64,000 bases of DNA from Planctomycetota bacterium (GTDB lineage: Bacteria > Planctomycetota > J058), in contig JANJTH010000829.1 in NCBI GenBank assembly GCA_024711205.1, positions 3,309 to 67,308 on the forward strand, given 5' to 3'. Made by a program: the position numbers and the translations under genes. Positions 6,290-64,000 of the stretch are shown here, piece by piece; the stretch's first letter is position 1; each line of letters starts with the position of its first letter. The notes under the pieces are model-generated. The model made no database searches, was not told the DNA's origin, and worked only from the letters and a program-made list of their open reading frames with translations.

Positions 6290-6291
6290 CC

Positions 6292-10814: not shown

Positions 10815-10844
10815 GGCCGTGGGCTCCGCCCGCCGGACGCGAGG

Positions 10845-12203: not shown

Positions 12204-12274
12204 GCTCCAGCTCCGAAGAGATGGAGCATGGCAGGCCGGTCCGACATGGCCGGTCAGACGGCGCGTGTCGATCG

Positions 12275-13597: not shown

Positions 13598-13674
13598 CCG
13601 CGGCCACGGCACCTGTGTCGGGGTCGAATCCTTGCCCCTAGCCAACGCAATCGACAACGGATAGAACACGGCCC

Positions 13675-14076: not shown

Positions 14077-14172
14077 CAAGCCCTCCGGGCCGACGCGTCG
14101 TCGTCTGCCCGGCGCCGGTGTCCACGGATCGCGGAACTCGTCCGCGGTCCAGGTCCCGCCCGGAGGGCTCTC

Positions 14173-15564
14173 ATGCGGTCGTACGTCTTCATCCGTCATC
14201 GCCCCTTCATCGCCACGCTCCTCGCTTGCGGGCTCGCGTCCGGATGCTCCAGCGCGCCGGACGACGTCCTCGACGCGTCGGAGACGTTGCGCGCGCTCGA
14301 GAGCATCCAGCTCCAGCCAGCGCCAGCCGAGCTCGCGCGCGTCAGCACGACGAGCATCACGTTTGCGCCCGAGGACGGGCTCAACGTGCTCGAGGCGTCG
14401 GCGCTCGCGATCCACCTGCATCCGCGCCTGCGGGCGGTGCGGGCCGAGATCGGCGTGGCGCAAGCCGAGCTCGTCGTCGCGGGCCTCCTGCCCGATCCGA
14501 CGATCGGCTGGGAGTCGGGCAACGTCGTCGCCGACTTCATCACCGACAGGAAGTCGTCGGCGAACAGCTACATCGCCGGCCTCACGCTCTCGTGGGACGT
14601 CCCGCGCCCCGGCGAGATCGGCGCCCGCGAGGCCGCGGCGCAGGGACGGATCGACGAGGCCCGCGCCCTCCTGCTGCAGGCGGAGTGGGAGCTCGTGCGA
14701 GACGTCCGGCTCGCGTGCGTCCGGCTCGCCTCGGCCGAGGCAGGACTCGCCCTCAACGCGGACCAGGCGCGCATCGCGGAGCGAACGCTCTCCTTCTTCG
14801 GGCAGGCCCGTCAGCTCGGTGAGGCGACGGCGATCCAGGCCCGGATCGCCACGGTCGCCGCGGCGCGCATCCAGGCCGACCAGGCCCGGCTCGAGCTCGA
14901 GGCCACCGACGCCCGACTCGCGCTCCTCGCGCTCCTCGGCCTTCCGCCGCGCACGCCGCTCGTCCTTCAGGATGGCTTGGCGCTCCTCGATCCTGCGCCG
15001 ATCCCTGGCGACGCCGACGCGCTCGTCGTGGAGGCCCTCGGCAAGCGCCCCGACCTCGCGGCGCTCGCTGCACAGCACACGCAGGCCGAGGCGCGGCTCC
15101 GGCTCGAGGAGGCCGGTCGATGGCCGCAGCTCTCGATCGGCAGCGGCATCGGGATCGAGCTCCCATTCTTCAGCCGCTTCAACGGGCCCGCGGTCGAGGC
15201 CGCGCTCCGCGGACGGACGGTCGCGCGCCTGCGCTACGAGTCGGCCGTCCACGAGCTCCGCCGCGATGTGCACGCCGCCCACGCCCAGTCGCGCCTCTCC
15301 ACGGCGCTCGTCCGGCGGCTCGAAGAGACGCTCATTCCGGCGGTCGAGGACTCCCTGCAGCTCACGCGGCGCGCCGTCGAGGCGGGGGAGTTCACCGCGT
15401 TCGAGGTTCTGACCGCACAGACCCAGGCCCTGGAGGCGCAGACCGAGCTCCTTGGCGCGCGCACCCGCAGGGCCGAGGCCCAGGTCGCGCTCGAGGCGGC
15501 GACCGGCCGCCTCACCCCCACCCCACAGCCCTTGCCCCGTGACGACGGGGAGGAGTCGCCATGA
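14173..15564 (+). CDS. czcC: Outer-membrane efflux factor (CzcC/TolC family), lipoprotein
   Basis: Lipobox 'LLACGLASGCSS'. OMF repeat architecture. GGAGGG ribosome-binding site. Overlaps the next gene by 4 nt. Gene order here is C-B-A. Confidence 0.85.
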   Translation: MRSYVFIRHRPFIATLLACGLASGCSSAPDDVLDASETLRALESIQLQPAPAELARVSTTSITFAPEDGLNVLEASALAIHLHPRLRAVRAEIGVAQAELVVAGLLPDPTIGWESGNVVADFITDRKSSANSYIAGLTLSWDVPRPGEIGAREAAAQGRIDEARALLLQAEWELVRDVRLACVRLASAEAGLALNADQARIAERTLSFFGQARQLGEATAIQARIATVAAARIQADQARLELEATDARLALLALLGLPPRTPLVLQDGLALLDPAPIPGDADALVVEALGKRPDLAALAAQHTQAEARLRLEEAGRWPQLSIGSGIGIELPFFSRFNGPAVEAALRGRTVARLRYESAVHELRRDVHAAHAQSRLSTALVRRLEETLIPAVEDSLQLTRRAVEAGEFTAFEVLTAQTQALEAQTELLGARTRRAEAQVALEAATGRLTPTPQPLPRDDGEESP

Positions 15565-16949
15565 TCACGCACCAGGTCCGCCTGCCGCTCAGCGCCCTCC
15601 TCGTGCTCCTGCTCGCGGGTTGTCCGGGCAAGAAGCCGGAGGGTGACGGCCACGACCACGCCCAGGGCGAGGAGGGTCACGGTCACGAAGAGGAAGGAGG
15701 CGGCCACGAGCACGGAGAGCACGGCGAGAGCAGCGACACGGTCGAGCTGACCAAGGCGCAGCTCGAGTCGTCCGGCGTGAAGACGGAGACCGCGGCCGTC
15801 GGGTCGGTGGCCACGACGCTCGCGGTGACCGCGGTGATCGCCGCCGACCTCGACGCGCAGGTCCACGCGACGGCGAAGGTGCCGGGCGTCGTGCGCTCGG
15901 TGAAGAAGCAGCTCGGCGACAAGGTCGCCGTCGGCGACGTCCTCTGCGAGATCGAGAGCGTGGAGCTCGGGCAGGCCGCGGCCGAATGGGTGAAGGCCCG
16001 CACGCTGCTCGAGTCCCAGCGGACGCTCCTGACGCAGGAGGAGGCGCTCCTCGGCCGGCGCGTCGAGCTCGCGCAGACCGTGCTCGACCGCGAGGAGCGG
16101 CTCAAGTCTCAGGAGATCGGGACGGTCCGCGCGTTCTATGAGGCCGAGCAGAAGCTGGCCGAGGCCCAGCTCGAGCGTGATCGGCGCCTGCTCGAGGTGC
16201 GCGCCGCGCTCCGGCAGCTCGAGGTCGAGCAGTCTGCAGCCCGCTCGCGCCTCTCGGCCATGGGCATGGCCAAGGACGAGCTCGACCGTCTCGCGTCGGA
16301 CGACCCGGCGGTGAGCCAGGACATCGGCAAGATCTCCGTCCGCGCCGCAGGCAAGGGCATCGTCGCCGCGCGTCACATCACGCTGGGGGAGTACGTCGGT
16401 CCGTCCGACGTCCTGTTCGAGCTTCAGGACCTCTCCCGCGTGTGGGTCGAGGCGCGCGTCTTCGAGAAGGACCTGCGCCTCGTGCGCACGGGACAGAAGG
16501 CCTGCGTGCGGCTCGAGGCGCTCCCCGGCGGGTGCTTCGACGCTCACGTGACGTTGATCGGCGCGACGCTCGACCGCGAGAGCCGCGCCGCCGTCGTGCG
16601 CATCGAGCTGGAGAACGCGAAGAGCGACGTCTGGCCGGAGGCCTTCCCGATCCGCCCCGGCATGTTCGGGACGGTGGAGGTGATCCTCGACGAGCGCATG
16701 GCGCCCGTGGTCCTGCCGGAGGCGGCGGTCGTCCACGAGGGCGCCGAGACGTTCGTCTTCGTGCGCGCGTCGGAGGACGCCGACGGGGTGACCTTCAAGC
16801 GCCACGAGGTCGTGATCCGCGACGCCGGCGCGGGCCGGGTCGAGGTCGTCTCCGGGATCGCTGCCGGCGAGGTCGTCGCGGTGTCCGGCCTGTTCACGCT
16901 CAAGTCGGTGGCTCGCCAGGGCGAGCTCGGCGGCGGCCACTCTCACTAG
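15561..16949 (+). CDS. czcB: HME-RND membrane fusion protein (CzcB family), lipoprotein with His-rich N-terminus
   Basis: 'LLAGCPGKKPEGDGHDHAQGEEGHGHEEEGGGHEHGEHG' at the N-terminus. MFP core. Ends 'GGGHSH'. Confidence 0.9.
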   Translation: MITHQVRLPLSALLVLLLAGCPGKKPEGDGHDHAQGEEGHGHEEEGGGHEHGEHGESSDTVELTKAQLESSGVKTETAAVGSVATTLAVTAVIAADLDAQVHATAKVPGVVRSVKKQLGDKVAVGDVLCEIESVELGQAAAEWVKARTLLESQRTLLTQEEALLGRRVELAQTVLDREERLKSQEIGTVRAFYEAEQKLAEAQLERDRRLLEVRAALRQLEVEQSAARSRLSAMGMAKDELDRLASDDPAVSQDIGKISVRAAGKGIVAARHITLGEYVGPSDVLFELQDLSRVWVEARVFEKDLRLVRTGQKACVRLEALPGGCFDAHVTLIGATLDRESRAAVVRIELENAKSDVWPEAFPIRPGMFGTVEVILDERMAPVVLPEAAVVHEGAETFVFVRASEDADGVTFKRHEVVIRDAGAGRVEVVSGIAAGEVVAVSGLFTLKSVARQGELGGGHSH

Positions 16950-16960
16950 CGGAGGCGCTC

Positions 16961-19900
16961 ATGATCTCGGGCATCGTCGACGCGTCTCTGAACAACCGCC
17001 TGCTGGTCCTCATCGGGTGGCTCCTCGTCGCCGTGGTGGGCTTCGGCTCGCTGCAGTCGCTGCCGATCGACGCCGTGCCGGACGTGACGAACGTCCAGGT
17101 CCAGGTGCTCACGAACAGCCCCGGCCTCGCGCCCGAGGAGGTCGAGCGGTTCATCACCTTCCCCGTCGAGCTCTCCATGTCGGGCCTGCCGGCCCTCGAG
17201 GAGGTCCGCTCGGTCTCCAAGTTCGGCCTGTCGGCCGTGACCGTCGTCTTCGAGGAAGGGACGGACATCTACTGGGCGCGGCAGCTCATCGCCGAACGCC
17301 TGGTCGCCGCGAAGGAGGAGATCCCGGAGGGCTACGGAGAGCCCGAGATGGGGCCGATCTCGTCCGGCCTCGGCGAGGTCTACCAGTTCGAGGTGCGCGG
17401 CGAGGGCAAGACGCCCATGGAGCTGCGCACGATGCTCGAGTGGCAGATCACGCCGCGGCTCCGCAGCGTGCCGGGCGTCGTCGAGGTCAACGCGTTCGGT
17501 GGCGAGCTCAAGTCGTACCAGGTGACGATCGACCCGAACCGCCTGGTCTCGTTCGGCATCCCGCTCTCACGCGTGTTCGAGGCCATCGAGCGCAACAACC
17601 GGAGCGTCGGCGGCGGCTACATCGAGCACGAAGGCGAGCAGTACCTCGTCCGCGGCGAGTGCCTGGTCGAGAGCCTGCCGGACCTGGCCCGGGTGGTCGT
17701 GGGCAAGGACGACGAGGGCACGCCCATCACGATCGAGCGGCTCGGCAAGGTCGAGCTCGCCCCCGTCATCCGGCAGGGCGCGGTGACCCGCGACGGCGAC
17801 CGCGAGGCCGTCGTGGGCATCGTCATGATGCTCATGGGCGCGAACTCGCGCACCGTCTCGCGCGACGTCCACGCCAAGGTCGAGGAGATCCAGCGCACGC
17901 TCCCCGAGGGCGTGAAGATCGACACGTTCTACGACCGCACCGAGCTGGTGGACCGCACGATCCACACCGTCGGCAAGAACCTGCTGGAGGGCGGCGCGCT
18001 CGTCGTCCTCGTGCTCCTGCTCCTCCTCGGCAACATCCGCGGCGGGCTCATCGTCGCGGCTGCGATCCCGCTCTCCATGCTCATCGCCGCCACGGCCATG
18101 CGGCTGGCCGGCCTGTCGGGCAACCTCATGTCCCTCGGCGCCATCGACTTCGGCCTGATCGTCGACGGCTCGGTCGTCATGATCGAGAACGTCGTGCGCT
18201 ACCTCGCGCACCACAAGGACGATCGTCGACCGCACATGGAGAAGGTCCGCGCGGCCTGCCACGAGGTCGCGCGCCCCGTCGTCTTCGCCGTCGGCATCAT
18301 CGCGATCGTCTACCTGCCGATCCTCGCCCTGCGCGGGATCGAAGGGAAGATGTTCAAGCCCATGGCGCTGACCGTCGTGTTCGCGCTCGCGGGCTCGCTC
18401 GTGTGCGCGCTGACGCTCATGCCCGTGCTGGCCTCGTTCGCGCTCAAGCGCGTCGCGGAGCATGAGCCGCTCCTGTTCCGCCTGGCGAAGCGCGCGTACG
18501 TCCCGTTCCTCGAGCGGACGCTTCGCCACCCCCGACTGACCCCGCTCATCGCCGTCCTCGCGTTCATCGCCAGCCTGTGCCTGGCGCCGTTCCTGGGCGC
18601 CGAGTTCATACCGCGGCTCGACGAGGGCGCGATCGCGCTCCAGATCTGGCGCATCCCGAGCATCTCGCTCGAGAAGAGCAACCAGCTCAGCCTCGACGCC
18701 GAGAAGGTCATCAAGTCGTTCCCCGAGGTGAAGACGGTCGTCTCGCGCACCGGTCGACCCGAGATCGCGACCGACCCCATGGGCGTCGAGATCAGCGACA
18801 CGTACCTCATCCTCGAGCCACCCGACACCTGGCGGTTCCACGACAAGAACGCGCTCGTCAAGGAGATCGACACGGCGCTCAAGGCCCGGCTGCCCGGCGT
18901 GATGTTCAGCTACAGCCAGCCGATCGAGCTGCGCGTCTCCGAGCTCATCAGCGGTGTCCGGTCGGACGTCGGGATCAAGGTCTACGGCGACGACATCAAC
19001 GGCATGAAGAAGGTGGCCGACCAGGTGGCCGCCGTCGTCGGCCGCGTGCCCGGCGTGGTCGAGGCCAAGGCCGAACAGACGACGGGCCTGCCCTACCTGC
19101 GCGTGCGCCTCCGGCGCGAGGCGCTGGCGCGGCTGGGGATCGACGCCCAGGACGTCCTCGACGTCGTCGAGACGATCGGCGGCAAGCCCGTGAGCACCGT
19201 GGTCGAGGGTCAGCAACGCTTCGCCCTCCAGGCCCGCTTCGATCCAGCGACCCGGGCGACGCTGCAGGCGCTGGCCAACCTTCCCGTGGCCACTCCCGGC
19301 GGTGGCATGGTCCCCCTGGGTCAACTCGCGGAGCTGGACGTCGAGAACGGACCCGCCCAGATCAGCCGCGAGCGGGTCAGCCGGCGCATCACGATCGAGC
19401 TCAACGTCCGGGGCCGCGATCTGGCCTCGACGGTCGCCGAGGCGCAGGCGGCCGTGCTGCGCGACGTGAAGCTCCCACCCGGCTGGTCGGTCGAGTGGGG
19501 CGGGCAGTTCCAGAACCTGCAGTCGGCCTCGGCGCGCCTGCGCATCCTCGTCCCGCTGGCGCTGCTCCTCATCTTCGTCCTGCTCTACACGACCTTCAAC
19601 TCCATGAAGCTCGCCGCGCTCATCTTCCTCAACGTCCCGCTCGCCGTGACGGGCGGGATCTTCGCGCTCGCGCTCCGCGGCTACCCCTTCTCGATCTCGG
19701 CGGGCGTCGGGTTCATCGCCCTGTTCGGCGTCGCCGTCCTCAACGGAGTCGTGCTCCTCAGCTATGTCGTCCAGCGCTGGGCTGACGGCCTGCGGGGCGA
19801 GGAGGCTGCGCGGGAGGCGGCGCTGGCTCGCTTGCGCCCCGTCCTCATGACGGCGCTCGTCGCATCGCTGGGCTTCGTCCCGATGGCGCTCGCGACCTCG

Positions 19901-38395: not shown

Positions 38396-39166
38396 TCATG
38401 CCTTGCCCAGCTTGAGGCGGATCGTGCGTGTCTCGCCGCCAACCGTGCGCACGAGCAGGGTGAACTCCTGTCCCGCGGGGATCGCCCCGACGGCGGAGAT
38501 CAGCCGATCGGGCCCCTCGATCGTCTGACCGTCGATGCCTAGGATCGTCATGCCGGCTTCGAGGCCGGCCGCGGCGACGGGGGCGCCCGGCGTGACGGAC
38601 TCGATCGAGATCGACTTCTTGTCCTCGGAGAGCTTGAGGCGTAGCCCGAGGAAGTCGTCGCCGCCGCCGGTGTCGCCGAGCTGGAAGCGGCCCCTGCAGC
38701 CCACGCAACAGAAGTAGTAGGTCTTCCCGTCCTTCTCCAGGGAGATCTCCGGGTTGACCCGCGAGCCGCGGAAGACCGGGCAGTAGAGGTAGTCGGTCGT
38801 GTGGGCGTCGAACGTCCGCGCGTTCTCCTCACTGGCGAATTGGAACGTCACGCCGTTCGCCGTCCGCGTCGCCACCGCGACGGCTGGGTCGAGCAACGTC
38901 CTCGAGACCGGGTCGAACCCCTGCGACGGCGCGTCACCGCTCCCCACCGCCGCCGTGTCCCAGCCCGACGCGCAGCAGGCCGTCTGGTGCCCGGCGCCCG
39001 AGAACGGCGACGAGCCGGGACCGCACGCCGGGTCCTCGCAGCTCTGACCCATGCACGACGCCTCCGCAGGAGCGTCGGCCGACGCCCCACAGCGCATGCT
39101 CCGGAGGCCGACGGCCCCCGCCCCGAACACAGCCGCAGCGACCAGCGTGACGACGGTCCTGTTCAT
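38396..39166 (-). CDS. Secreted YHS/TRASH-like metal-binding domain protein with a C-terminal PDZ domain
   Basis: Signal peptide. Cys-rich 'CMGQSCEDPACGPG...QTACCASGW'. 'GVTFQFASEENARTFDAHTTDYLYCPV...YYFCCVGCRGRF' is YHS/TRASH-like. 'SISIESVTPGAPVAAAGLEAGMTILGIDGQTIEGPDRLISAVGAIPAGQEFTLLV' is a PDZ domain. Lies 4 nt downstream of the merT fusion. Confidence 0.7.
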   Translation of the reverse strand: MNRTVVTLVAAAVFGAGAVGLRSMRCGASADAPAEASCMGQSCEDPACGPGSSPFSGAGHQTACCASGWDTAAVGSGDAPSQGFDPVSRTLLDPAVAVATRTANGVTFQFASEENARTFDAHTTDYLYCPVFRGSRVNPEISLEKDGKTYYFCCVGCRGRFQLGDTGGGDDFLGLRLKLSEDKKSISIESVTPGAPVAAAGLEAGMTILGIDGQTIEGPDRLISAVGAIPAGQEFTLLVRTVGGETRTIRLKLGKA

Positions 39167-39170
39167 GGGA

Positions 39171-40070
39171 TCACTCCTTCTCGTGCGAGGCGCACGACGG
39201 GCAGGGGGCCGGACGCGACGCGTCCGCGGGGCTGGTCTCGCCGACGACGAGACCAGCGAAGCTCGGGAACGCCGCGAAGCCGATCACGACGACGACCGCG
39301 GTCCAGAGCATGACCTTGTTGAACGCCAGCAGGCCGGAGCCCGGCGCCTCGCACGAGCCGTCCGGCGAGCATTCGACCTTCCGGTAGGTCAGACGGAACG
39401 CGACGGCGAGGAGGAGCCCGGCCGCCCCGAGCAGCCAGGGACGATGGGCGTCGAGGAAGCCCGCGACGCCGCCGGCCGAGACGCCGAACGCGACCAGGGC
39501 CAGCGGGAGCCAGCAGCAGGCCGACGACAGGATCGCCGAGGCCATAGCGCCCGCTGCCGCCAGCGTCCCGGCCCCGCCCCGCCCCGTCGGCGGGGGAGTC
39601 GCGGCGCGGGAGTCGCCCTCCGGCTCCCCCTGACCCTGGAGCGCACGTCGCTCCACGGCACGGACGTTCCCAAGGCAGCAGCTCCCCTGGGGGTTCGTCT
39701 CGGCGCAACGATCGAACTCGCGCCGGCACTGCTCGGTGATCGTGTCCGCGATCGTCGATGCGCCGGTGCGAGCGATCTCCGCCTCGATGTCCTCGGCGGT
39801 GTGGCCGAAGCAGTAGCAGAGCGGCCGCGGAGCCGCGGACTCCTTCGTCCCGATGCGCACGCTCACGTCCGAGGACGCGACGCGGTCGCCAGACTCGGGA
39901 TGGTAGTACGCCGTCGCGCAGCCCGCCGCAGGGCAGTGCCTCCAGCCCTCCGTGCAACCGAACGAGCCCAACGCAGCCGGCGTCAAGAGCGCCTGCACCG
40001 TGACCGCCCGCACCGGCTTCCCGCCTGCGCCGCAGCCCGGGCACACGGTGGCCGTCGCGGCCTGGCTCAC
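39171..40070 (-). CDS. merT: MerT-like mercuric-ion transporter fused to an N-terminal cytoplasmic Cys-rich domain (zinc-ribbon plus BFD-like CxC...C)
   Basis: C-terminal half 'LSSACCWLPLALVAFGVSAGGVAGF...RLTYRKVECSPDGSCEAPG' matches the MerT CC pair in TM1 and the C-x5-C loop with identical spacing. N-terminus has 'CPGCG...', 'CYCFGHTAEDIEAEIARTG', 'CRREFDRC...GSCC'. GTG start overlaps the merR stop (GTGA). Confidence 0.75.
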   Translation of the reverse strand: MSQAATATVCPGCGAGGKPVRAVTVQALLTPAALGSFGCTEGWRHCPAAGCATAYYHPESGDRVASSDVSVRIGTKESAAPRPLCYCFGHTAEDIEAEIARTGASTIADTITEQCRREFDRCAETNPQGSCCLGNVRAVERRALQGQGEPEGDSRAATPPPTGRGGAGTLAAAGAMASAILSSACCWLPLALVAFGVSAGGVAGFLDAHRPWLLGAAGLLLAVAFRLTYRKVECSPDGSCEAPGSGLLAFNKVMLWTAVVVVIGFAAFPSFAGLVVGETSPADASRPAPCPSCASHEKE

Positions 40071-40486
40071 GTGCCGACCTTCGTGGCCTTGCCGCTCCGC
40101 TCGTCGAGCACGTCGAGAATCGGGCACTGGCTCTTCAGGTCGGTGGCGCCGCACTGCTCCACCAGCCGCCCGAGCGCGCGCTTGAACGACCGCAAGGTGC
40201 GGAGCTTCTCGTCGATGTCCTTGAGCTTCGCCTCGGCCAGCTCCCGGACGTCCGAGCACGTCGTCGTGCGGGACACGCGGAGCGCCAGCAGCTCGTCGAT
40301 CTCCTTCAGGGTGAAGCCGAGGGCCTGCGCCTGCTTCACGAAGCTCAGGCGGCGGACGTCGTCCGCGTCGAAGTCGCGGTACCCGACCTTGCCGGGACGC
40401 GGGTCGGGCAGCAGGCCGCGCCGCTCGTAGTAGCGGACCGTCTCGACCCCCACGCCGCACGCCTTGGCCAGCTCGCCGATCGTCAT
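40067..40486 (-). CDS. merR: MerR-family metalloregulator with Hg-type cysteine triad spacing
   Basis: Canonical N-terminus 'MTIGELAKACGVGVETVRYYERRGLL'. Cys at positions 77, 112 and 121. Spacing of 35 and 9 is identical to Tn501 MerR C82/C117/C126. The promoter places the transcription start near this ATG, so the mRNA is leaderless. The upstream in-frame ATG (40498) lies inside the -10 element. Confidence 0.85.
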   Translation of the reverse strand: MTIGELAKACGVGVETVRYYERRGLLPDPRPGKVGYRDFDADDVRRLSFVKQAQALGFTLKEIDELLALRVSRTTTCSDVRELAEAKLKDIDEKLRTLRSFKRALGRLVEQCGATDLKSQCPILDVLDERSGKATKVGT

Positions 40487-40494
40487 GCCGAGGA

Positions 40495-40525
40495 GCATAC
40501 GGTCCGTACCTAGGTACGGGGTCAA
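40495..40525 (-). promoter_or_regulatory. MerR-type promoter: -35 TTGACC, 20-bp spacer holding a perfect 16-bp palindrome CCGTACCTAGGTACGG, -10 TATGCT
   Basis: Minus strand reads cTTGACCCCGTACCTAGGTACGGACCGTATGCTcctcggcATG. The long spacer with a dyad operator is the MerR-family hallmark. Confidence 0.6.
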
Positions 40526-40637
40526 GGGACAATCGGCAGAGCGTAGAGCTGCGCGGGTATCAGGGCAGGGGTTGAGCACGATCGAGCATCATGGGCACGC
40601 GGCGCGACGATCTTCCACAACGCGCCGAGGAGCTGTC

Positions 40638-40979
40638 ATGCCGAACGGATGGTGGGACTGGACGCCGAGCTGGAGCGAGAAGGCGCTCGACGACACGATC
40701 GCGCTCTGGGAACCGAAGTACCAGGAGCGTGACCCGAGCGTGAAGCTCACCCGCGAAGACGCGCGGGAGATCCTCACGAACCTCCACGGGTTCTTCGGGC
40801 TCCTCTCCAAGTGGGATGCCCAAGAGAAGGAGAAGCTCGCGAGCGCCGGTCCGCACGAACCGGGCGCCTCGGCCGAGGCGCCGAGCTCGTCGCCGATGCC
40901 CCCAGCGGATCGACCGAAGACGGCCGAGAAGAAGGCCCCGCGTCGGAGGCCACGGCGGAGCCAACCGCCAGGCGGATGA
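40638..40979 (+). CDS. Hypothetical Trp-rich small protein in a lower-GC stretch
   Basis: GAGGAG ribosome-binding site 5 nt upstream. 'MPNGWWDWTPSWSEKALDDTIALWEPKYQERD...'. Confidence 0.4.
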   Translation: MPNGWWDWTPSWSEKALDDTIALWEPKYQERDPSVKLTREDAREILTNLHGFFGLLSKWDAQEKEKLASAGPHEPGASAEAPSSSPMPPADRPKTAEKKAPRRRPRRSQPPGG

Positions 40980-41046
40980 CCGGCGCCGTGCGCGGGGAGC
41001 CCCGGGCCTTGCCGTGGCGGATGCGGATGCCAGCATCAAGCGGGTC

Positions 41047-41973
41047 ATGCCCGAGCTCCCCGACGTCGTCGTCTACATCGAGTGCCTCGAGCGGCGCGTC
41101 GTCGGGCAGAAGCTCGAGCGCGTGCGGATCGCGAGCCCGTTCGTCCTGCGCTCGGCCGACCCGCCGATCAGCTCCGCCGAGGGGAAGTCGGTCCGCGAGG
41201 TCCTGCGCCTCGGGAAGCGGATCGTCTTCGTGCTCGAGGACGACCTGTTCCTCGTCCTGCACCTCATGATCGCGGGCCGCCTCGCGTGGGCCGACCGCGG
41301 CGCGAAGATCCCCGGGAAGATCGGCCTCGCGGCGCTCGACTTCACGACCGGGACGCTGATCTTCCGCGAGGCCAGCACGAAGAAGCGCGCCTCGATGCAC
41401 CTGGTCCGCGGCGAGGACGGGCTCCGGCAGTTCGACCGCGGGGGCCTCGAGGTCCTGACCGCGAAGCTCGCCGACTTCCGGGCGGTCCTCGCTCGCGAAA
41501 ACCATACGATCAAGGTCGCTCTCGTCGATCCGACGCTCTTCAGCGGCATCGGCAACGCCTACTCCGACGAGATCCTCCATCGCGCGCGCCTCTCGCCCGT
41601 GAAGCTCACGTCGCGCCTCACACCCGACGAGACGAAGACGCTGTTCAAGGCCACGAAGGACGTCCTGGAGGAGTGGACCGAGCGCCTGCGCGGCGAGGTG
41701 GGCGAGGGCTTCCCCGACAAGGGCGTCACCGCCTTCCGCGAGGGCATGGCCGTCCACGGCCGGTACAAGCAGCCCTGCCCCGACTGCGGGTCGCCGGTGC
41801 AGCGCATCGTGCGCGGCGACCACGAGACGAACTACTGCGCGACGTGCCAGACGGGCGGCAAGCTCCTCGCCGACCGCGCGCTGTCGAAGCTCCTCAAGGC
41901 CGACTGGCCGAAGACGCTCGAGGAGCTCGAGGAGCGCATGCCGCGAAGCGCTCCGCCTACAGCGAAGCGTTAA
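41047..41973 (+). CDS. fpg: Formamidopyrimidine-DNA glycosylase (Fpg/MutM), full length
   Basis: 'MPELPDVVVYIECL' catalytic N-terminus (Pro2, Glu3). H2TH 'FSGIGNAYSDEILHRARLSP'. Zinc finger 'CPDCGSPVQRIVRGDHETNYCATCQTGG'. Confidence 0.9.
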   Translation: MPELPDVVVYIECLERRVVGQKLERVRIASPFVLRSADPPISSAEGKSVREVLRLGKRIVFVLEDDLFLVLHLMIAGRLAWADRGAKIPGKIGLAALDFTTGTLIFREASTKKRASMHLVRGEDGLRQFDRGGLEVLTAKLADFRAVLARENHTIKVALVDPTLFSGIGNAYSDEILHRARLSPVKLTSRLTPDETKTLFKATKDVLEEWTERLRGEVGEGFPDKGVTAFREGMAVHGRYKQPCPDCGSPVQRIVRGDHETNYCATCQTGGKLLADRALSKLLKADWPKTLEELEERMPRSAPPTAKR

Positions 41974-42071
41974 CGTTCTTGGAGCCTCCGCGGCGACTGA
42001 ACCCCGGGCCTGTCGGGGCCATCGCATAGGCTGTCGGTTGGTCGCCACTCGCGACCGACGAACGACAACCA

Positions 42072-45000
42072 ATGAGGGATGGTGCGGTGTTCATTCCTGG
42101 CGAGGCGATCCAGCTGCCAGTCCTCAGACTCGCGGATGCGCGAAGGCGTATCGGCACCATCCAGCACGTCCTTCGCCCCGGCCGGAGCCTCACGATCAAG
42201 GAAGTGTCCGAGTCGCGGCTGAAATCCGGCAGAAAGGCCACACTCCTCGAGCTCTCGAACGAAGAGCGAATCCTGGTGACGCAGCAGAAGACCGCCGATA
42301 GGCCGGATGACGTGGACGCTGTCCTCCGCATCGTTGATGGAGAGGCGCCCACCTGGCTCGCCAGTAAGGTTCAAGACGCCTTCGTTGCGGCGACGGCCTC
42401 TGGGTACTCGAGCCAGGTCAAGGTCATCTCCGACGCTTGGCGCGCGACGTTCCAGTTCCCCAGCTCCGGGCGTGGGAGCGGGCGCCCCTGTCTCCGTCCC
42501 CCGCAGATCGGAGCGCTCCACGCGATCGCCGCGCACTGGACCCTGGGCACCGATCCCGCGACGGTGGTGATGCCGACCGGCACGGGCAAGACCGAGACGA
42601 TGCTCACCTGCGTCGTGGGCCTCGCCTGCAGCCCGACCCTCATCGTCGTCCCATCCGATGCGCTGCGCTCACAGACGGCGCGAAAGTTCAGGACGTTGGG
42701 TCTGCTGCGCCAGCTTGGAGTCCTTCCCGAGGACGCGCCCAACCCCATCGTCGGCATCGTGAACAAGCGGCCTCACTCGAAGGAGGAGATCGCGGAGGTC
42801 TTCGACAACTGCAACGTCGTCATTACTACGATGTCCGCACTGGCCCACTGCGCCGACGAGGGCCTGCTCGAGTCGCTCGAAGAGAGGGTCGACGCGCTGT
42901 TCGTCGACGAGGCCCACCACGTCGCGGCCCCCACATGGAACGCGCTCCGGGACGGGCTGCTCGGACGACGGATCCTCCAGTTCACCGCCACGCCGTTCCG
43001 GCGGGACGGGAAGATCGTCGACGGCGAGGTGGTCTACTCCTATCCGCTGCGCCGGGCGCAGGAGGAGGGCTTCTTCAAGCCGATCTCGTTCCGGCCGGTC
43101 TTCGAGGTCGACGCGGACGAGAAGGACAGGAGCATCGCCAAGGCCGCAGTGGAGCAACTCAACGCCGACCGCGCTCGCGGACTGGATCACCTGCTCATGG
43201 CCAGGTGCGACTCCATCAAGCGCGCCACGTCGGTGCTGGAGATCTATCAGGCCCTGGCCGGCGAGCACTCGCCCTTGCTCGTCCACTCCGACCTGCCCGA
43301 AGTCGAGAAGCTGGTCGCTCAAGTCGTCGCTGGCAAGAGCCGCGTCGTCGTCTGCGTCGACATGCTCGGAGAGGGGTTCGACCTGCCGCAGCTCAAGGTC
43401 GCCGCCGTCCATGACGTCCACAAGAGCTTGGCCGTGATCCTGCAGTTCACCGGCCGCTTCACGCGAAACGGTCCGAGCGACGTCGGCGACGCGACGGTCG
43501 TCGCCAACATCGCCGACGCGAACGTCTCCGAGGCCTTGGAGCGCCTCTACAGCGAGGATGCCGACTGGAATCACCTCCTCAGCGAGCTGAGCTCGACGGC
43601 GGTTCGCGACCACGCCGAGTTGATCGACTTCGTCCGAGAGTCGAAGCGACTCGATGAGGACGAGGTCGAGCCCACGCACCTCGCCATCTCGCCCAGGCTC
43701 CTGCGACCACGCTTCAGCACGGTCGTGTACCCGGGCAAGAAGTTCAGGCCGAAGCGCTTCCACGAGGCCATTCCGGATGGGACTCGAATACACGGCGTCT
43801 GGCTCTACAAGGCCAACACGCTGTACTTCGTCACGAAGACCCCGCTGCCCGTCCGCTGGAGCAGCTCGAAGGAAATCCACGACGAACGGTGGGATCTCAC
43901 CGTCGTCCACTTCGACGAGCCTCGGAGGCTGCTCTTCGTCCACTCGAGCGACAACGGCTCGCTTCACGAGCTGCTCGCACAGGTCGTGCTCGACTCGAAG
44001 GAGAGGGTGAAGCCGATCCAGGGCGACGTGGTGTTCCGCACGCTCGGGAACATCAACCGCCTCCTGTTCCAGAACGTCGGGGTGAGGAAGCATGGGCGCC
44101 GGAACATCAGCTACGCGATGTACACCGGGTCCGATGTCGAGAAGGCGCTCACCGAGGCGCAGACGGCGAACTCGATCAAATCCAACCTGACCGGAACGGG
44201 GTGGGAAGGCGGGCACCCCGTCGCCGTCGGCTGCTCCTACAAGGGACGCATCTGGTCGCAGCGCGGCCACGGTCCCATCCCGCGCTTCGTCGAGTGGTGC
44301 ACGACCGTCGGCACCAAGCTGCTTGACGCCTCCATCGACACGTCGAAGATCCTCACCCACGTCCTCATCCCGAAGGAGATCGACAAGCTGCCCGACGCTG
44401 TGCTCCTCGCGGTCGACTGGCCGATCGAGCTCGTCTCCAAGCTGGAGGAGCACCTCACGGTCGGCTGGGAGGGCAGGAGCAGCCCCTTCGGGGACCTCGA
44501 CCTCGTCGCCGGCGCAAGGCTCGGCGATCGAGAGGTGCAGTTCCACGTCCGCGGCGACGCTGGGCTCGACGCCGCCTTCAGCTTCGAGCTCCACAGCGAG
44601 GCTGGCTTCAAGATCACGCAGCTCACCGGAGCACAGCTCTCGATCGGCTCTGCCCGCGAACAGGTGTCGCTGGAGGGTTTCCTGTCCGAGACACCCCCGA
44701 TCTTCCGCTTCACGGACCTGTCCGAGCTCGACGGGACGCTCCTGACGGTCCCGAAGGACCCCACGAGCACGCCCATCCCGCCGACGCAGTTCTCCGATCG
44801 TTCCTGGCCGGGAGTCGACATCACGGTCGAGTCCATGTGGAAGGACGGCAAGCTTCGCCCGGACTCGATCCAGGGGCACATGGCGAAAGAGTTCATCGCT
44901 GCGGCCCATGACCTCGTGATCGACGACGATGGGAGCGGCGAGGCCGCGGACCTGGTGTGCTTCAAGGAGCACGCGGACCGGGTCGAGCTCGTCCTGGTCC

Positions 45001-45365
45001 ACTGCAAGTTCTCGGGGGCGGACGAGCCCGGCGAGCGGCTCAAGGACGTCGTGGAGGTCTGTGCGCAGGCGGTGCGGTCCGCGAAGTGGGTCTGGCGAAC
45101 GAGGGACCTGATGGCCCATCTCTTGCGCCGGGCGCGGACTCGATTGAAGGCTGGCCGCAATCCGTATCTCCGCGGCTCGGCGGCGACGCTCGGCCGAATT
45201 CAACAGGCGATGAAGTCCAAGCGGGTCGTCGCGGAAATCCTGGTCGTTCAGCCCGGTCTGTCCAAGGCCAACTGCTCGGCCAACCAGACCGCGATCCTGT
45301 CCGCGGCCCACACCTTCTTGCTCGAGACCGTCGAGGTCCGGATGCGCGTGATCTGCAGCCCGTGA
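42072..45365 (+). CDS. Large orphan SF2 (DEAH) helicase with a ~600-aa C-terminal extension of unknown function
   Basis: Motif I 'VVMPTGTGKTETM'. Ia 'LIVVPSDALRSQT'. II 'LFVDEAHHVA'. III 'LQFTATPFRRDG'. V 'VDMLGEGFDLP'. VI 'QFTGRFTRNG'. The tail has a possible PD-(D/E)xK-like patch 'ADLVCF...VELVLVHCK'. Local GC is lower than the flanks. Confidence 0.85.
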   Translation: MRDGAVFIPGEAIQLPVLRLADARRRIGTIQHVLRPGRSLTIKEVSESRLKSGRKATLLELSNEERILVTQQKTADRPDDVDAVLRIVDGEAPTWLASKVQDAFVAATASGYSSQVKVISDAWRATFQFPSSGRGSGRPCLRPPQIGALHAIAAHWTLGTDPATVVMPTGTGKTETMLTCVVGLACSPTLIVVPSDALRSQTARKFRTLGLLRQLGVLPEDAPNPIVGIVNKRPHSKEEIAEVFDNCNVVITTMSALAHCADEGLLESLEERVDALFVDEAHHVAAPTWNALRDGLLGRRILQFTATPFRRDGKIVDGEVVYSYPLRRAQEEGFFKPISFRPVFEVDADEKDRSIAKAAVEQLNADRARGLDHLLMARCDSIKRATSVLEIYQALAGEHSPLLVHSDLPEVEKLVAQVVAGKSRVVVCVDMLGEGFDLPQLKVAAVHDVHKSLAVILQFTGRFTRNGPSDVGDATVVANIADANVSEALERLYSEDADWNHLLSELSSTAVRDHAELIDFVRESKRLDEDEVEPTHLAISPRLLRPRFSTVVYPGKKFRPKRFHEAIPDGTRIHGVWLYKANTLYFVTKTPLPVRWSSSKEIHDERWDLTVVHFDEPRRLLFVHSSDNGSLHELLAQVVLDSKERVKPIQGDVVFRTLGNINRLLFQNVGVRKHGRRNISYAMYTGSDVEKALTEAQTANSIKSNLTGTGWEGGHPVAVGCSYKGRIWSQRGHGPIPRFVEWCTTVGTKLLDASIDTSKILTHVLIPKEIDKLPDAVLLAVDWPIELVSKLEEHLTVGWEGRSSPFGDLDLVAGARLGDREVQFHVRGDAGLDAAFSFELHSEAGFKITQLTGAQLSIGSAREQVSLEGFLSETPPIFRFTDLSELDGTLLTVPKDPTSTPIPPTQFSDRSWPGVDITVESMWKDGKLRPDSIQGHMAKEFIAAAHDLVIDDDGSGEAADLVCFKEHADRVELVLVHCKFSGADEPGERLKDVVEVCAQAVRSAKWVWRTRDLMAHLLRRARTRLKAGRNPYLRGSAATLGRIQQAMKSKRVVAEILVVQPGLSKANCSANQTAILSAAHTFLLETVEVRMRVICSP

Positions 45366-45551: not shown

Positions 45552-46370
45552 TCAGCGCACCTCCAGCACGAGGGGCGCGGTGATCACGCGCTCGCCGCGC
45601 TTCACCTGAACCCAGAGCTTGTAGAGGCCCGCCACGGGGAACGTGGCGTGCACCGCGAGTGGCCCGCGCCCGCCCGAGGCGTGCGGCTGGTGGTGGCCGC
45701 CGTGAGCTCCGTGGCCATGCTGGCTCGAGCTCGTGAAGCCGCCGTGGAAGTGGAGGAACTGGCGGAAGTCCGGCGAGATCGCGATGGCGTGGACCGGCAT
45801 GCCCATCCACTCCTCGAGCTCGACGGGCTCGCCCTGGTCGTCGTCGACGGCGATCGAGAGCTCGACGGGGACGTTCGCCTGGAGCGGCGCCGCGAGCGGA
45901 GCGATCGTCAACTGCGTGTCCTGCAGGGTGGCGCGGTACGCCATGCGCCCGTCGAACGCGCTTGAGGCGTCGAGCTGCGCGAAGCCGGACTGCGCGCCGG
46001 CCGGCCACACCGTGGTGCGCAGGACCTGGCCCGCGCCCCCCGTCTCCGAGGCCGTCGGCGTGACCTCCGCGAACAGGGCGTAGGGCGAGGCGCGACCGAA
46101 GTCGAGCTCGACGGAGAAGGAACCGTCGCTTCGGAGCCGCGGGTGGACGTGCTGGAAGTCCTCGAGGTCGTACGTCGTGGCGATCAGGTGCATGGCCTGG
46201 CCGTGGTGGGCCTCGAACTGGGTGGCCTTCGTGCCGTCGGCGCGGAGGACGTCGAGGACCAGGTGGCTCCTCTCGCCGACCACGGCAGGAGGAGACTCGG
46301 TGACCTGGAGCTTGTAGCTGGGCGGGTCCTCGGTCCGGACGTCGCACGCCGCGAGGGCGAGCGTGAGCAT
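45552..46370 (-). CDS. Periplasmic lipoprotein of an uncharacterised His/Met-motif family (paralogue of 58290..59150), putative metal-binding
   Basis: Lipobox 'LALAAC'. Shared motifs with the paralogue: 'MHLIA..DL.DFQHVHPRL', 'MGMP.HAI..S.D.R.FLH.HG', 'GLYKLWVQV.R..R.IT.P.V..V'. Gly/His-rich 'HGHGAHGGHHQPH'. Confidence 0.65.
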   Translation of the reverse strand: MLTLALAACDVRTEDPPSYKLQVTESPPAVVGERSHLVLDVLRADGTKATQFEAHHGQAMHLIATTYDLEDFQHVHPRLRSDGSFSVELDFGRASPYALFAEVTPTASETGGAGQVLRTTVWPAGAQSGFAQLDASSAFDGRMAYRATLQDTQLTIAPLAAPLQANVPVELSIAVDDDQGEPVELEEWMGMPVHAIAISPDFRQFLHFHGGFTSSSQHGHGAHGGHHQPHASGGRGPLAVHATFPVAGLYKLWVQVKRGERVITAPLVLEVR

Positions 46371-46501
46371 GGGCAGGGCGATACGCGTATCGAGCACGGG
46401 TGGCCTCCTTCCGACCTTCACGGAGGCAGACGCGACGACGGCCCAATGATTACAGCCGCCGACGCCGAGGTCGAAGCCGAGCGTGCGCAACGGCCCGACG
46501 C

Positions 46502-60630: not shown

Positions 60631-63039
60631 GTGACCCCGACGAAGACCGATTCCGCTGGCCCTGATCTCGAACACGACTGCTGCGGCGGCCACGGCGCTG
60701 GCAGCGCCCCTGCTCCCGCTTCGCCCGCCCAGGTGCTCGACCCGGTGTGCGGCATGACGATCGACCCCGCGGACGCCGCGGGCACGCACGAGCACGAGGG
60801 GACGAGCTACGCGTTCTGCAGCACCCACTGCCTGAAGGCGTTCGTGGCGAACCCCGAGCGCTACGTGGGTGAGCACGCAGGGCACGAGCACGAGGAGCAC
60901 GCGACGGAGGCGAAGGCCGCGGCGACGGGCACCGAGTACACGTGCCCGATGCACCCGGAGGTCGTGCGCTCCGAACCGGGCCCGTGCCCGCTGTGCGGCA
61001 TGGCGCTCGAGCCGAAGACGATCACGGCCGCGCCCGAGGACGACAGCGAGCTCCGCGACATGACGCGGCGGTTCTGGATCGGCATGGCGCTCACGATCCC
61101 CCTCATGGCGCTGGCCATGTCGGAGATGCTGCCGGGCGCGCCGATCCATCACGCGCTCGGCCGCGCGCTGAACTGGCTCCAGCTCGGTCTCGCCGCGCCA
61201 GTCGTCCTGTGGGGCGGCTGGCCCTTCTTCCAGCGCGGCTGGGCGTCGCTCGCCCACCGCAGCCTGAACATGTTCACGCTGATCGCGCTGGGCACGGGCA
61301 CGGCCTTCATCTACAGCCTCGTCGGCACGCTCTGGCCCGAGGCGTTCCCGCCCTCGGCCCGCGGCCACGGCGGCGTCGTGGCCGTCTACTACGAGGCGGC
61401 CGCGGCGATCACGACCCTCGTGCTCCTGGGCCAGGTCCTCGAGCTGCGGGCTCGGAGCAGCACGAGCAGCGCGATCCGCGCGCTGCTCGGGTTGGCCCCG
61501 AAGACCGCGCGCCGGGTCGGGGCGACCGGCGACGAGGACGTGCCGCTCGAGCACGTGCAGAAGGGCGATCGGCTGCGCGTCCGGCCGGGCGAGAAGGTCC
61601 CCGTCGACGGCAAGCTGCTCGAAGGGTCGAGCACCGTGGACGAGTCCATGGTCACGGGCGAGCCGATTCCCGTGGAAAAGCAGCCCGGCGACTCGGTGAC
61701 TGGCGGCACGATCAACGGCAACGGCTCGTTCGTGCTGCGCGCCGAGCGCGTCGGCAACGAGACGTTGCTCGCGGAGATCGTGCGCCGCGTGAGCGAGGCT
61801 CAGCGCAGCCGCGCGCCGATCCAGCGCCTCGTCGACCAGGTGTCCGCCTGGTTCGTCCCCGCCGTGATCGCGATCGCGGCGCTGACCTTCGTCGCGTGGT
61901 GGAACCTCGGCCCCGAGCCGCGCCTCTCGAACGCGCTGCTCGCGGCCGTGGCCGTGCTCGTGATCGCCTGCCCCTGCGCGCTGGGCCTCGCCACGCCCAT
62001 GAGCGTCATGGTCGGCACCGGCCGCGGCGCGCTGGCCGGCGTGCTCGTGCGCGACGCGCGGGCCCTCGAGCAGCTCGGGCAGGTCGACACGGTCCTCGTC
62101 GACAAGACCGGCACGCTCACCGAGGGCAAGCCGCGCCTGGCCTCGCTCACGCCGGCCGCCGGCCAGGATCCACTCGAGCTGCTCGGGCTCGCGGCCGCGC
62201 TCGAGCGGCCGAGCGAGCACCCGCTCGCCGCCGCGGTCCTCGCGGCCGCGGCCGAGCGCGGCGCGCCCTCGCTCGAGGCGACCGGGTTCCTCGCGGTCCC
62301 CGGGAAGGGCGTCACGGGCCGCGTGGCCGACCGCGCCGTCGCGCTCGGGAACGCCGCCCTGCTCTCGGAGCTCGGCGTCGAGCCCGGCCCCCTGGGGCCG
62401 AGGAGCGACGAGCTCCGCGCGGCCGGCCAGACGGTCGTGTTCGTCGCCGCCGACGGGAGGGTGATCGGCCTGGTCGGCGTCGCCGACCCGATCAAGCCGT
62501 CGACGCCCGAGGCGCTGTCCCTCCTCCGCGAGGCGGGCGTGAAGGTGGTCATGCTCACCGGCGACGCGCGCTCCACGGCCGAGGCCGTCGCGCGGGAGCT
62601 CGGGATCGAGGAGGTGCGGGCCGAGGTCCGCCCCGAGGGGAAGGCCGAGGTCGTGGACGAGCTCCGCCGCACCGGCCGCGTGGTCGCCATGGCCGGCGAC
62701 GGCGTGAACGACGCCCCCGCGCTGGCCGCTGCCCACGTCGGGATCGCCATGGGCACGGGCACGGACGTCGCGGTCGAGAGCGCCGCGATCACCCTCGTCC
62801 GCGGCGACCTCCGCGGGATCGCGCGGGCACGGCGCCTGAGCCAGCAGACGATGAGGAACATCCGCCAGAACCTCGTCCTCGCCTTCGCCTACAACGTGCT
62901 CGCCATCCCGGTCGCGGCCGGCGTGCTCTACCCGGCCTTCGGCCTCCTCCTGAGTCCGATGATCGCCAGCGCGGCCATGAGCCTGAGCTCGGTCTCGGTG
63001 ATCGCCAACGCGCTGCGGCTGCGGAAGGTCGAGCTGTAG
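60631..63039 (+). CDS. copA: Copper-translocating P1B-type ATPase with N-terminal YHS/TRASH and HMBD domains
   Basis: GTG start with a GGAG ribosome-binding site. '[36 protein letters not shown]' is YHS-like. '[26 protein letters not shown]' is an HMBD. 'CPC' in '[12 protein letters not shown]'. 'DKTGTLT', '[10 protein letters not shown]'. Confidence 0.9.
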
Positions 63040-63132
63040 GCGTCACGCGCGCAGGACACCGTCATGCGCACGTGACGGAGGGCCGCGTGCAGCTGCGCGA
63101 AACGCCGGCACCGTGATTGCAGTTGCAGGGGC

Positions 63133-64000
63133 ATGAGCTCGAACCTCTCCGCGCCTGCCCACGCGCTCGACGCCGACGCCGTCGCGCGTGGGCTCGCCAC
63201 CGACCCGATGCGCGGCCTCGCCCCCGACGCCGCCCGCGCGCGGCTGGCAGAGCTCGGGCCGAACGAGCTGACCGAGGAGCCGCCGGCGCCCGCGTGGCGG
63301 CGCTTCGTGGCCCAGCTCAACCAGCTCGTGGTGTGGATCCTCCTCGGGGCGGCCGCGATCGCGGCGGCGACCGGCGAGTGGACGGACGCGGGCGCGATCC
63401 TGGCGATCGTCCTGCTCAACGCGTTCCTGGGCTTCGTCCAGGAGGAGCGCGCCGAGCGGGCGCTCGCGGCGCTGCAGAAGATCGCCGCGCCCCAGGCGCG
63501 CGTCGTGCGCGGCGGCGCGGACGCCATCGTCGGCGCCAGCGACCTCGTCCCGGGCGACGTGGTCAGGATCGAGGCCGGCGACCGCGTCCCGGCGGACGCG
63601 CGACTCGTCGAGGCCTTCGGCCTGCGCGTCGACGAGGCGCTCCTCACGGGCGAGTCGGTCCCGGTGGACAAGGAGGCGCGGGGAGCGCTCGACGCGGCGG
63701 CTCCGCTCGCGACGCGGTCGAACATGCTCCACGCGGGGACCATGGCCGTGGCCGGGACCGCGCGCGCGGTCATCGTCGCCACGGGCATGTCGAGCGAGCT
63801 CGGCCGAATCGCCGGGCTCATGCACAGGCAGGAGCGCGAGCCCACGCCGTTGCAGAAGAAGCTCGAGGAGCTGGGCAGGGCGCTCCTGGGGGTGTGCCTG
63901 GTCGTGGGCGCGGCGGTCTTCGCGCTCGAGTGGTGGCGGGAGGGTCACCCCGGCGACGCGCTCCTCCTGTCGATCAGCCTCGCGGTCGCGGCCGTGCCCG
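63133..64000 (+). CDS. Cation-transporting P-type ATPase (P2/P3-like), 5' part only; runs off the window end
   Basis: 'LAELGPNELTEE' N-terminus. Two TM helices. Actuator motif 'DEALLTGESVPV'. 'PTPLQKKL'. No stop codon before nt 64000. Confidence 0.8.
   Translation, partial: MSSNLSAPAHALDADAVARGLATDPMRGLAPDAARARLAELGPNELTEEPPAPAWRRFVAQLNQLVVWILLGAAAIAAATGEWTDAGAILAIVLLNAFLGFVQEERAERALAALQKIAAPQARVVRGGADAIVGASDLVPGDVVRIEAGDRVPADARLVEAFGLRVDEALLTGESVPVDKEARGALDAAAPLATRSNMLHAGTMAVAGTARAVIVATGMSSELGRIAGLMHRQEREPTPLQKKLEELGRALLGVCLVVGAAVFALEWWREGHPGDALLLSISLAVAAVP

Follow-up and report, generated by a model that had tools for sequence, protein, structure and literature searches.

The 64,000-nucleotide (nt) stretch of DNA analysed here, hereafter the window, derives from contig JANJTH010000829.1 of a Planctomycetota bacterium and harbors, at 42072..45365 on the forward strand, an open reading frame (ORF) for a protein of 1097 amino acids (aa) in which, judging from structure prediction, an intact superfamily 2 (SF2) motor, an RdgC-like module and an endonuclease-fold domain are very probably joined in a single chain. 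The family to which this protein belongs is accessory and horizontally mobile, with a fixed architecture and no fixed partner, and the balance tilts slightly towards a horizontally acquired, single-polypeptide, ATP-dependent helicase-nuclease with a role in innate defence against phage or plasmid DNA. An earlier reading of the same DNA, made from its letters alone (the sequence-only reading), had proposed an orphan SF2 DEAH helicase with a possible nuclease tail, acting in defence or mobile-DNA biology; its observation was confirmed and its interpretation was partly supported. The module of about 300 aa predicted to adopt an RdgC-like fold between motor and nuclease sets the protein apart and was missed in that reading. 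Altogether, the protein is a credible candidate for an unnamed single-gene helicase-nuclease defence system, whose function we infer. The likelihoods given below for this reading and for its alternatives are separate estimates and do not form a partition.

The whole ORF runs from ATG 42072 to the stop codon TGA at 45363-45365, in agreement with the 1097-aa DEAH helicase that had been described at this place. Full-length alignment with 119 homologues of ~47-51% identity revealed an intact reading frame, with neither frameshift nor truncation, and conservation along the whole length of the protein. In public assemblies, a 100% identical protein is called with 1092 aa from GTG 42087, five codons after the ATG. 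On inspection of the start regions, a Shine-Dalgarno-like GAGGGA was found at 42075-42080, 7-12 nt 5′ of GTG 42087, and no such sequence was found upstream of ATG 42072; GTG 42087 is therefore the likelier start of the gene.

The SF2 helicase/translocase core occupied aa 140-510 (42489..43601, +) and consisted of a ResIII N-lobe followed by Helicase_C, for which Pfam returned ResIII at aa 141-310 (1.3e-21), DEAD (5e-11) and Helicase_C at aa 390-467 (7e-07). Of the helicase motifs that had been recognised by eye, I, II, III, V and VI were all present: motif I was MPTGTGKT (aa 167-174, 42570-42593, +), motif II was DEAHH (aa 279-283, 42906-42920, +), motif III was FTATP (aa 304-308), motif V was MLGEGFDLP, and motif VI was QFTGRFTR (aa 458-465, 43443-43466, +). 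Invariance was assessed on 96 diverged sequences, comprising the query and 95 full-length representatives of separate 50%-identity clusters that were 28-48% identical to it, and K173, D279, E280, H283, R462 and R465 were unchanged in all of them. When the family profile was compared with PDB sequences, the closest solved relatives of the helicase among the 60 best matches were RadD (5e-14), XPBII (2e-13), Rad25, SauUSI (7clg, 4.6e-9), UvrB, HsdR, Mfd and PriA, and the matches included XPB entries that also contain Bax1.

Outside this core, sequence libraries were silent, as had been anticipated for a tail of ~600 residues with no recognisable family: neither aa 1-135 nor aa 510-1097 had a match in Pfam, NCBIfam, PADLOC, PHROGs or PDB sequences, and the matches of both the PDB sequence and the family-profile searches were confined to the helicase core. 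The best PADLOC v2 (2023) match was PbeA (3.6e-13, aa 156-390), which corresponded to the generic helicase core. The N-terminal domain (aa 1-135, 42072..42476, +) likewise remained without family assignment, and its P78, W95 and W123 were conserved in the close subfamily. This domain was kept in 74 of the 95 diverged full-length representatives; a large subfamily is devoid of the N-terminal ~120 aa, and many loci aligned only from about aa 115-141 on.

The architecture of the tail emerged from AlphaFold2 (AF2) models of aa 530-1097 and of aa 895-1097, both built from alignments of full-length homologues. The first of these reached a predicted local distance difference test score (pLDDT) of 91.4 and a predicted template modelling score (pTM) of 0.88. 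Its middle module, about aa 541-895 (43692..44756, +), comprised an RdgC-like fold of ~300 residues and, after it, a small β-rich segment. A Foldseek search against the PDB gave a sole significant match, E. coli RdgC (2owl_A), with E 5.5e-4, a probability of 1.00 and 296 of 302 aligned columns. Against BFVD, a library of viral predicted structures, nine matches had E<=1e-3, all of them viral proteins of 277-388 aa; names were available for four of the nine, two being recombination-associated/RdgC, one 'Exonuclease' and one 'Uncharacterized'. Since the PDB and BFVD libraries agreed, the ~300 residues after the helicase were assigned an RdgC-like fold. RdgC is a DNA-binding dimer that forms a ring, and the cellular role of its fold has so far been poorly understood. 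No tie to RdgC was found at the sequence level: aligning the family profile to E. coli RdgC with hhalign gave a probability of 0.5%, and the Pfam RdgC model did not match. A basic cluster formed by R656, R663, K703, K724 and R726, together with W728, was conserved in the middle module across the wide family, a pattern that would be compatible with nucleic-acid binding.

The C-terminal domain, aa 900-1097 (44769..45362, +), was assigned a restriction-endonuclease fold with a putative active site on the basis of AF2 and Foldseek, which bears out the PD-(D/E)xK-like tail suggested by the sequence-only reading. The model of aa 895-1097 had a pLDDT of 92.3, with its elements in the order H39-49, E54-57, E67-72, E76-84 and H96-109 (H, helix; E, strand), that is, an αβββαβ restriction-endonuclease-like core in which the order α-β-β-β-α was observed. 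PD-(D/E)xK nucleases dominated the top of the Foldseek list against the PDB, each match being weak (E 0.03-0.2); CdiA-CT (4g6u) was the best (E 0.027), and Nt.BspD6I, HincII, SwaI, LmuA and the FokI cleavage domain (probability 0.8, query TM-score, TMq, 0.46) were also retrieved.

Within this domain, E920, Q934, D952, D953, E957, D960, H977, K979 and Q999 were invariant in 96/96 diverged sequences, so that the nuclease-site pattern, as read from the alignment, is DD-x3-E-x2-D…H-x-K…Q. The core motif, encoding the D…H-x-K region, lay at 44925-45008 (+). In the AF2 model, β2 opened with D960, β3 closed with H977-x-K979, and α2 contained Q999; D960 and K979 thus occupied the canonical PD…(D/E)xK positions, and an invariant His977 stood in place of the acidic residue. 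The patch 'ADLVCF...VELVLVHCK', which had been singled out by eye as reminiscent of such nucleases, does fall within the predicted nuclease core. However, the glutamate taken there for the E of E-x-K, E972 of 'VEL', was variable, with V, E, R and Q occurring at that position. Because E972 varied while H977 and K979 did not, the motif was redefined as D…HxK. As far as the alignment allows, the missing carboxylate could come from among the invariant D952, D953, E957 and E920.

It may be asked whether this domain is catalytic at all, since it could be a DNA-binding or regulatory endonuclease fold and the protein a helicase or translocase only, a question that concerns the domain and not the biological role. 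The replacement of the canonical acidic residue of (D/E)xK by His, the weakness of the Foldseek matches and the general knowledge that PD-(D/E)xK folds without activity exist would all agree with such a proposal. However, nine invariant polar or charged residues cluster on the canonical α1/β1/β2/β3/α2 positions across 96 members, a pattern typical of active sites, and D960 and K979 sit where catalytic residues are expected. In addition, both the helicase and the putative nuclease centres are under strong purifying selection, because their residues were 100% invariant at 28-48% identity, which counts against a non-catalytic tail as well as against a decayed gene. A non-catalytic C-terminal domain was therefore considered quite unlikely.

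The family proved to be large and widely scattered. With the tail alone as query, about 1,400 clusters defined at 50% identity were retrieved, of which 412 reached E<=1e-30. In the 150 best matches the tail was C-terminal, and these proteins mostly had ~1000-1120 aa, the shorter ones probably being fragments. A scan of species-representative genomes yielded 548 relatives in more than 15 phyla, which included Planctomycetota, Alpha-, Beta- and Gammaproteobacteria, Bacteroidota, Acidobacteriota, Nitrospira, Verrucomicrobiota, Poribacteria, the candidate phyla radiation (CPR; Saccharibacteria and Parcubacteria), Firmicutes (Clostridia) and one metagenome-assembled genome (MAG) of Aenigmatarchaeota. 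The nearest relative was 74% identical and resided in a different gene context, and every other relative was at most 51% identical. Within species the gene was rare, being found in only 8 of 5,426 complete E. coli genomes.

Copies on mobile DNA were frequent. A near-full-length copy was present on at least 60 plasmids, and 226 plasmid records, of which 83 were conjugative, had some match; in Klebsiella IncFIB/HI1B plasmids (246 kb), the family gene was flanked by copies of IS5. About 11 contigs predicted to be viral or prophage also contained full-length copies. Two records named Acinetobacter 'phage MD-2021a' (328-379 kb) contained a family member at 165784-167445 annotated as 'uvrB_1'; this label is probably wrong, and the records themselves may be plasmids or megaphages. 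In the literature, no paper was found on the family, on its E. coli (WP_001549206) or Klebsiella (WP_074091248) accessions, or on 'RdgC-like' helicases.

The neighbourhoods of relatives were compared by clustering all ORFs within 6 kb of the gene in 80 loci, and no universal partner gene was found among them. The recurrent neighbours were large serine recombinases (11 of the 80 loci), an AddA-like helicase belonging to an AddA/AddB-like pair (10), tyrosine integrases (9), the Azaca genes ZacA, ZacB and ZacC (9, 9 and 8, respectively), HmaA/DrmD-like SNF2 helicases (6) and ABC-type ATPases (6). Six of the Azaca loci represented a single island of recent spread, whose helicase was 94-99% identical across genera. 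Three more loci held Azaca variants in either orientation with a ZacC only 30-56% identical, giving at least four divergent variants overall, and the association was thus not the product of one clone. The gene order of the island was an AddB-like PD-(D/E)xK protein, an AddA-like UvrD helicase-nuclease, the family helicase, ZacA, ZacB and ZacC; it was found in loci L067 (at ~1850-17400), L075, L077, L078, L080 and L081, whose hosts were Brevundimonas, Nitrospirillum, Prosthecomicrobium, Rhizobium, Aminobacter and a Xanthobacteraceae MAG, and since its proteins were 92-99% identical across these hosts, a recent spread between genera was deduced.

In 69 further loci, the immediate neighbours were mixed and included integrases, recombinases, SNF2 helicases, reverse transcriptases (RTs), AIPR, HEPN and the TrwC relaxase. 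When 125 immediate neighbours were scanned with PADLOC, three were SNF2/DrmD-like by family counts, and 199 families were matched in total. On the chromosome of E. coli ECONIH5 (L085:12001-18957), WP_001549206 adjoined a retron of the Ec78 type, RT-PtuA-PtuB, and a disrupted fimbrial operon housed the family gene and the retron, which both lay between insertion sequence (IS) elements and two integrases. These relatives behave as accessory, mobile or defence-island genes and not as core genes. The two outcomes that the sequence-only reading had named as contrary to its proposal were both looked at: the tail was not assigned to any housekeeping family, and the homologues were not syntenic core genes.

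Such a setting would also be expected of a gene that serves the mobile element carrying it, be it in competition or exclusion between plasmids or integrative and conjugative elements, or in processing the DNA of that element as it transfers or replicates. The abundance of plasmid copies (226 records matched, 83 of them conjugative), the serine and tyrosine recombinases, IS elements and TrwC relaxase that adjoin family genes, and the copies in predicted prophage regions all speak for this explanation. However, no replication or transfer module was regularly associated with the family, and many chromosomal copies showed no visible element, including the one in the window, where no integrase was called, no tRNA was found in the 64 kb, and no direct or inverted repeats flanked the helicase gene beyond chance-like short matches. 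A function on behalf of the element was hence judged unlikely, and it would in part be a variant of the defence reading, since anti-plasmid systems count as immunity.

Another explanation is that the gene is a decayed or orphaned restriction subunit, of the Type III Res or Type I HsdR-like kind, that lost its methyltransferase and no longer has a function. This would account for ResIII being the best Pfam domain match, for the name 'type III restriction endonuclease subunit R' given to some database copies, and for the order of a motor followed by a C-terminal nuclease, which is that of Res. Conversely, no DNA methyltransferase flanked the helicase gene in the window, and no methyltransferase family was among the recurrent immediate neighbours (69 loci) or the neighbour clusters (80 loci). 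The architecture and the catalytic residues were nevertheless conserved over ~1,400 clusters, which is incompatible with decay. Moreover, no NCBIfam Res or HsdR model reached its cutoff (best E 0.027-0.077), with dnd_restrict_1 scoring 41.5 bits against a cutoff of 600 and the type I R models 11-12 bits against 550-729, and the RdgC-like insert is not a feature of Res. Decay was accordingly regarded as highly improbable.

In the window, the helicase gene follows fpg, encoding formamidopyrimidine-DNA glycosylase (41047..41973, +; Pfam Fapy_DNA_glyco, H2TH and zf-FPG), which lies 98-113 nt upstream. The mechanical ORF of fpg (40816-41973, +) starts 77 codons early, and the catalytic N-terminus MPELPDV was located at ATG 41047. 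On the other side, a gene for a protein of 281 aa (45552..46397, -), called in an identical public contig, lies 186 nt from the helicase stop and had no Pfam match. The gene was thus found to be alone, as had been stated, with no adjacent partner, fpg upstream on the same strand and a convergent gene downstream. Around it, neither a sigma-70 promoter nor a terminator consensus was found. Two short GC-rich hairpins, CCCCG…CGGGG and GGTCGC…GCGACC, were noticed in the spacer between fpg and the helicase gene (42002-42057); the predicted RNA fold of this spacer was no better than that of shuffled sequence (z = -1.15), and it therefore gave no evidence for a regulatory RNA.

The vicinity of fpg raises the alternative of an accessory helicase-nuclease for DNA repair or recombination, a fused analogue of XPB-Bax1 or RadD that would act on damaged DNA or stalled forks and be linked to fpg here. 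In its favour, the closest solved helicases are repair enzymes (RadD, XPB/Rad25, UvrB and Mfd), the middle module resembles a recombination-associated DNA-binding protein, the helicase gene is on the same strand as fpg and just downstream of it, and an AddA/AddB-like pair stands directly upstream of the family gene in about 10 alphaproteobacterial loci. However, fpg was absent from the recurrent neighbours of the family in 80 loci, and an operon with fpg was rejected because fpg is not a conserved neighbour. The helicase gene was also missing downstream of fpg in three relatives whose fpg was 85-90% identical; the patchy distribution, the rarity within E. coli and the plasmid-borne and IS-flanked copies are atypical for repair genes; the tail had no match to Bax1/DUF790 or to any other repair family in Pfam and NCBIfam; and the AddAB-like link was limited to the recently spread island described above. 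A repair function was for these reasons thought improbable.

Relatives of the window's fpg were 81-93% identical, and the few with a source label were described as Planctomycetota MAGs. Among the three that lack the helicase gene, one with a 90% identical fpg (ENA scaffold_2112_c2) carried instead two large helicase-type genes 1.4 kb downstream of fpg (11350-18837), one encoding a 1418-aa fusion of HIT, DEAD/ResIII helicase and Peptidase_S24, and the other a 1012-aa SauUSI-like protein with phospholipase D (PLD), helicase and DUF3427 domains. Because these relatives lack the helicase and one of them carries other helicase-type genes, the site downstream of fpg was considered variable, and in this lineage it resembles a hotspot of variation or of defence.

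The wider surroundings are related to metals, with MerT/CopZ-like and YHS-PDZ genes upstream of the helicase gene and an OEP/CusB/CusA-type pump 5-10 kb downstream. Since metal-related genes were found on both sides, the gene lies inside the metal region, and its placement by the sequence-only reading at the right-hand edge of a metal island had to be abandoned. A functional tie to the metal genes was rejected, as none of them recurs beside relatives. Upstream, a single ORF (39171-40532, -) joins zf_CopZ zinc-binding and MerT-like mercuric transport domains and is followed by a YHS and PDZ protein (38396-39166, -); the start or frame of the CopZ-MerT ORF is uncertain because its GC content at third codon positions (GC3) was 0.75, low for the genome.

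Composition agreed with a foreign but old origin of the gene. Its GC content of 0.65-0.67 was the lowest of the 64-kb window and lay below that of the flanks (0.70-0.75), as had been reported, by a modest margin, and its GC3 of 0.887 compared with 0.92-0.98 in neighbouring genes. The drop is real, modest and largely ameliorated, and since GC3 in particular is so, the acquisition of the helicase gene was not recent. At both ends of the window (1-4000 and 62000-64000), GC rose to 0.76-0.79, compared with about 0.70-0.74 elsewhere.

Several points weigh against a role in defence. The family's role in immunity is something we infer, and the evidence from defence neighbourhoods is qualitative, consisting of raw counts of loci; many immediate neighbours in the 69 loci were unremarkable genes, those for SecA, ribonucleotide reductase and a sigma factor, for example. 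In the window itself, fpg and metal-resistance genes, and not defence genes, are the neighbours, and the gene did not arrive recently. As to the protein, the PADLOC v2 models match nothing past the generic helicase core, the similarity to RdgC is structural only, the individual nuclease-fold matches to the predicted model are statistically weak (best E 0.027), and the putative site bears His where canonical enzymes bear Asp or Glu. Even so, defence was the most likely role in view of the distribution and neighbourhoods of the family.

In this defence reading, the RdgC-like module with its conserved basic residues would hold or encircle DNA, the SF2 motor would spend ATP to translocate along or unwind the bound DNA, and the terminal H-x-K domain would cleave it. 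The protein would act alone, either in a restriction-like manner or by sensing abnormal DNA ends or intermediates of replication, much like other helicase-nuclease immune proteins. A broader proposal may be entertained tentatively, namely that the family is a widespread single-gene immune system of bacteria, CPR and some archaea, in which an RdgC-fold clamp loads onto or senses DNA and couples an XPB/Res-like motor to an H-x-K endonuclease. If true, this would be the first immune role of the RdgC fold, which would gain a defined job in a DNA-targeting machine, and a new architecture among helicase-nuclease defences. The family is large (about 1,400 clusters in more than 15 phyla), resides on clinical Klebsiella plasmids and is unnamed in the annotation resources used, so that, should it prove to act in defence, a frequent blank in defence annotation would be filled; many comparable single-gene candidates exist. 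The invariant K173, DEAH, D960, H977 and K979 make the hypothesis open to mutagenesis.

It is becoming apparent that bacterial immunity uses stand-alone helicase-nucleases, among them Hna, Hachiman, Druantia DruE and DdmD, to sense abnormal DNA. The present protein was compared with several known systems. It resembles Hachiman (HamA + HamB) and archaeal XPB-Bax1 in coupling an SF2 helicase to an endonuclease-fold effector on DNA; however, those are two-protein systems. Hachiman was rejected, since there was no HamA or HamB match in PADLOC at E<=1, no Pfam DUF1837 and no conserved partner, and Pfam DUF790 (Bax1) had no match in the protein either. A 2026 preprint on a 'forked DNA helicase-nuclease' concerned Druantia DruE and not the present family. 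The 2026 'Crouga' system of P4 hotspots, which has a ResIII/DEAD/Helicase_C protein (PMC13586616), was set beside the present protein by description only.

Among restriction enzymes, the likeness to Type III Res and Type I HsdR consists of a ResIII-type SF2 translocase and a restriction-endonuclease fold in one chain, and with Type III Res also of the domain order, motor and then nuclease. Unlike them, the protein lacks a Mod or HsdM/S partner in the window, none is conserved among its relatives, and its RdgC-like insert is foreign to Res. The suggestion of a Type III Res-like orphan was consequently not upheld, and membership as a Type III Res subunit was rejected because Mod is absent here and not conserved in the 80 related loci and curated Res models, those of NCBIfam, were unmatched. 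The SauUSI-type Type IV enzymes (7clg) are similar in being stand-alone helicase-nucleases with a DNA-recognition module and a distantly related helicase core, and the PADLOC mREase_IV model matched at 2e-5. However, in SauUSI the nuclease is an N-terminal PLD domain and the reader a C-terminal DUF3427, whereas the present protein lacks both and has a C-terminal nuclease of another fold; with no PLDc or DUF3427 match in Pfam at E<=1, membership of the SauUSI-like group was rejected. As for RdgC, the middle module superposes on nearly the whole RdgC monomer (2owl) and also matches phage RdgC models, but RdgC is a free protein of ~300 aa, whereas the RdgC-like fold is here a domain within a helicase-nuclease, and sequence similarity is absent. 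Membership of the RdgC family by sequence was rejected on the Pfam and hhalign results given above.

Abortive infection by Hna is set off by phage single-stranded DNA-binding protein, and Hna has 3′-5′ exonuclease activity on single-stranded DNA. Described in Sinorhizobium meliloti as a single-protein helicase-nuclease acting by abortive infection, it has 845 aa, with the nuclease attached directly to a DinG/XPD-like core (PMC13381803). The present protein, in contrast, has 1097 aa, an XPB/RadD/ResIII-like core, an H-x-K site and, like many of its relatives, an additional N-terminal domain, and a ~350-aa module with an RdgC-like fold separates its motor from its nuclease. Its nearest solved helicases are RadD, XPB, SauUSI, UvrB and HsdR, with no DinG or XPD entry among the 60 best PDB matches of the family profile. 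The Hna-like label of the sequence-only reading was therefore withdrawn, and membership of Hna was rejected on account of the core, the middle module and the length. What the two share is a single chain with an N-terminal SF2 ATPase and a C-terminal nuclease of the PD-(D/E)xK fold, in the present protein a predicted one, together with a broad, patchy and partner-free spread.

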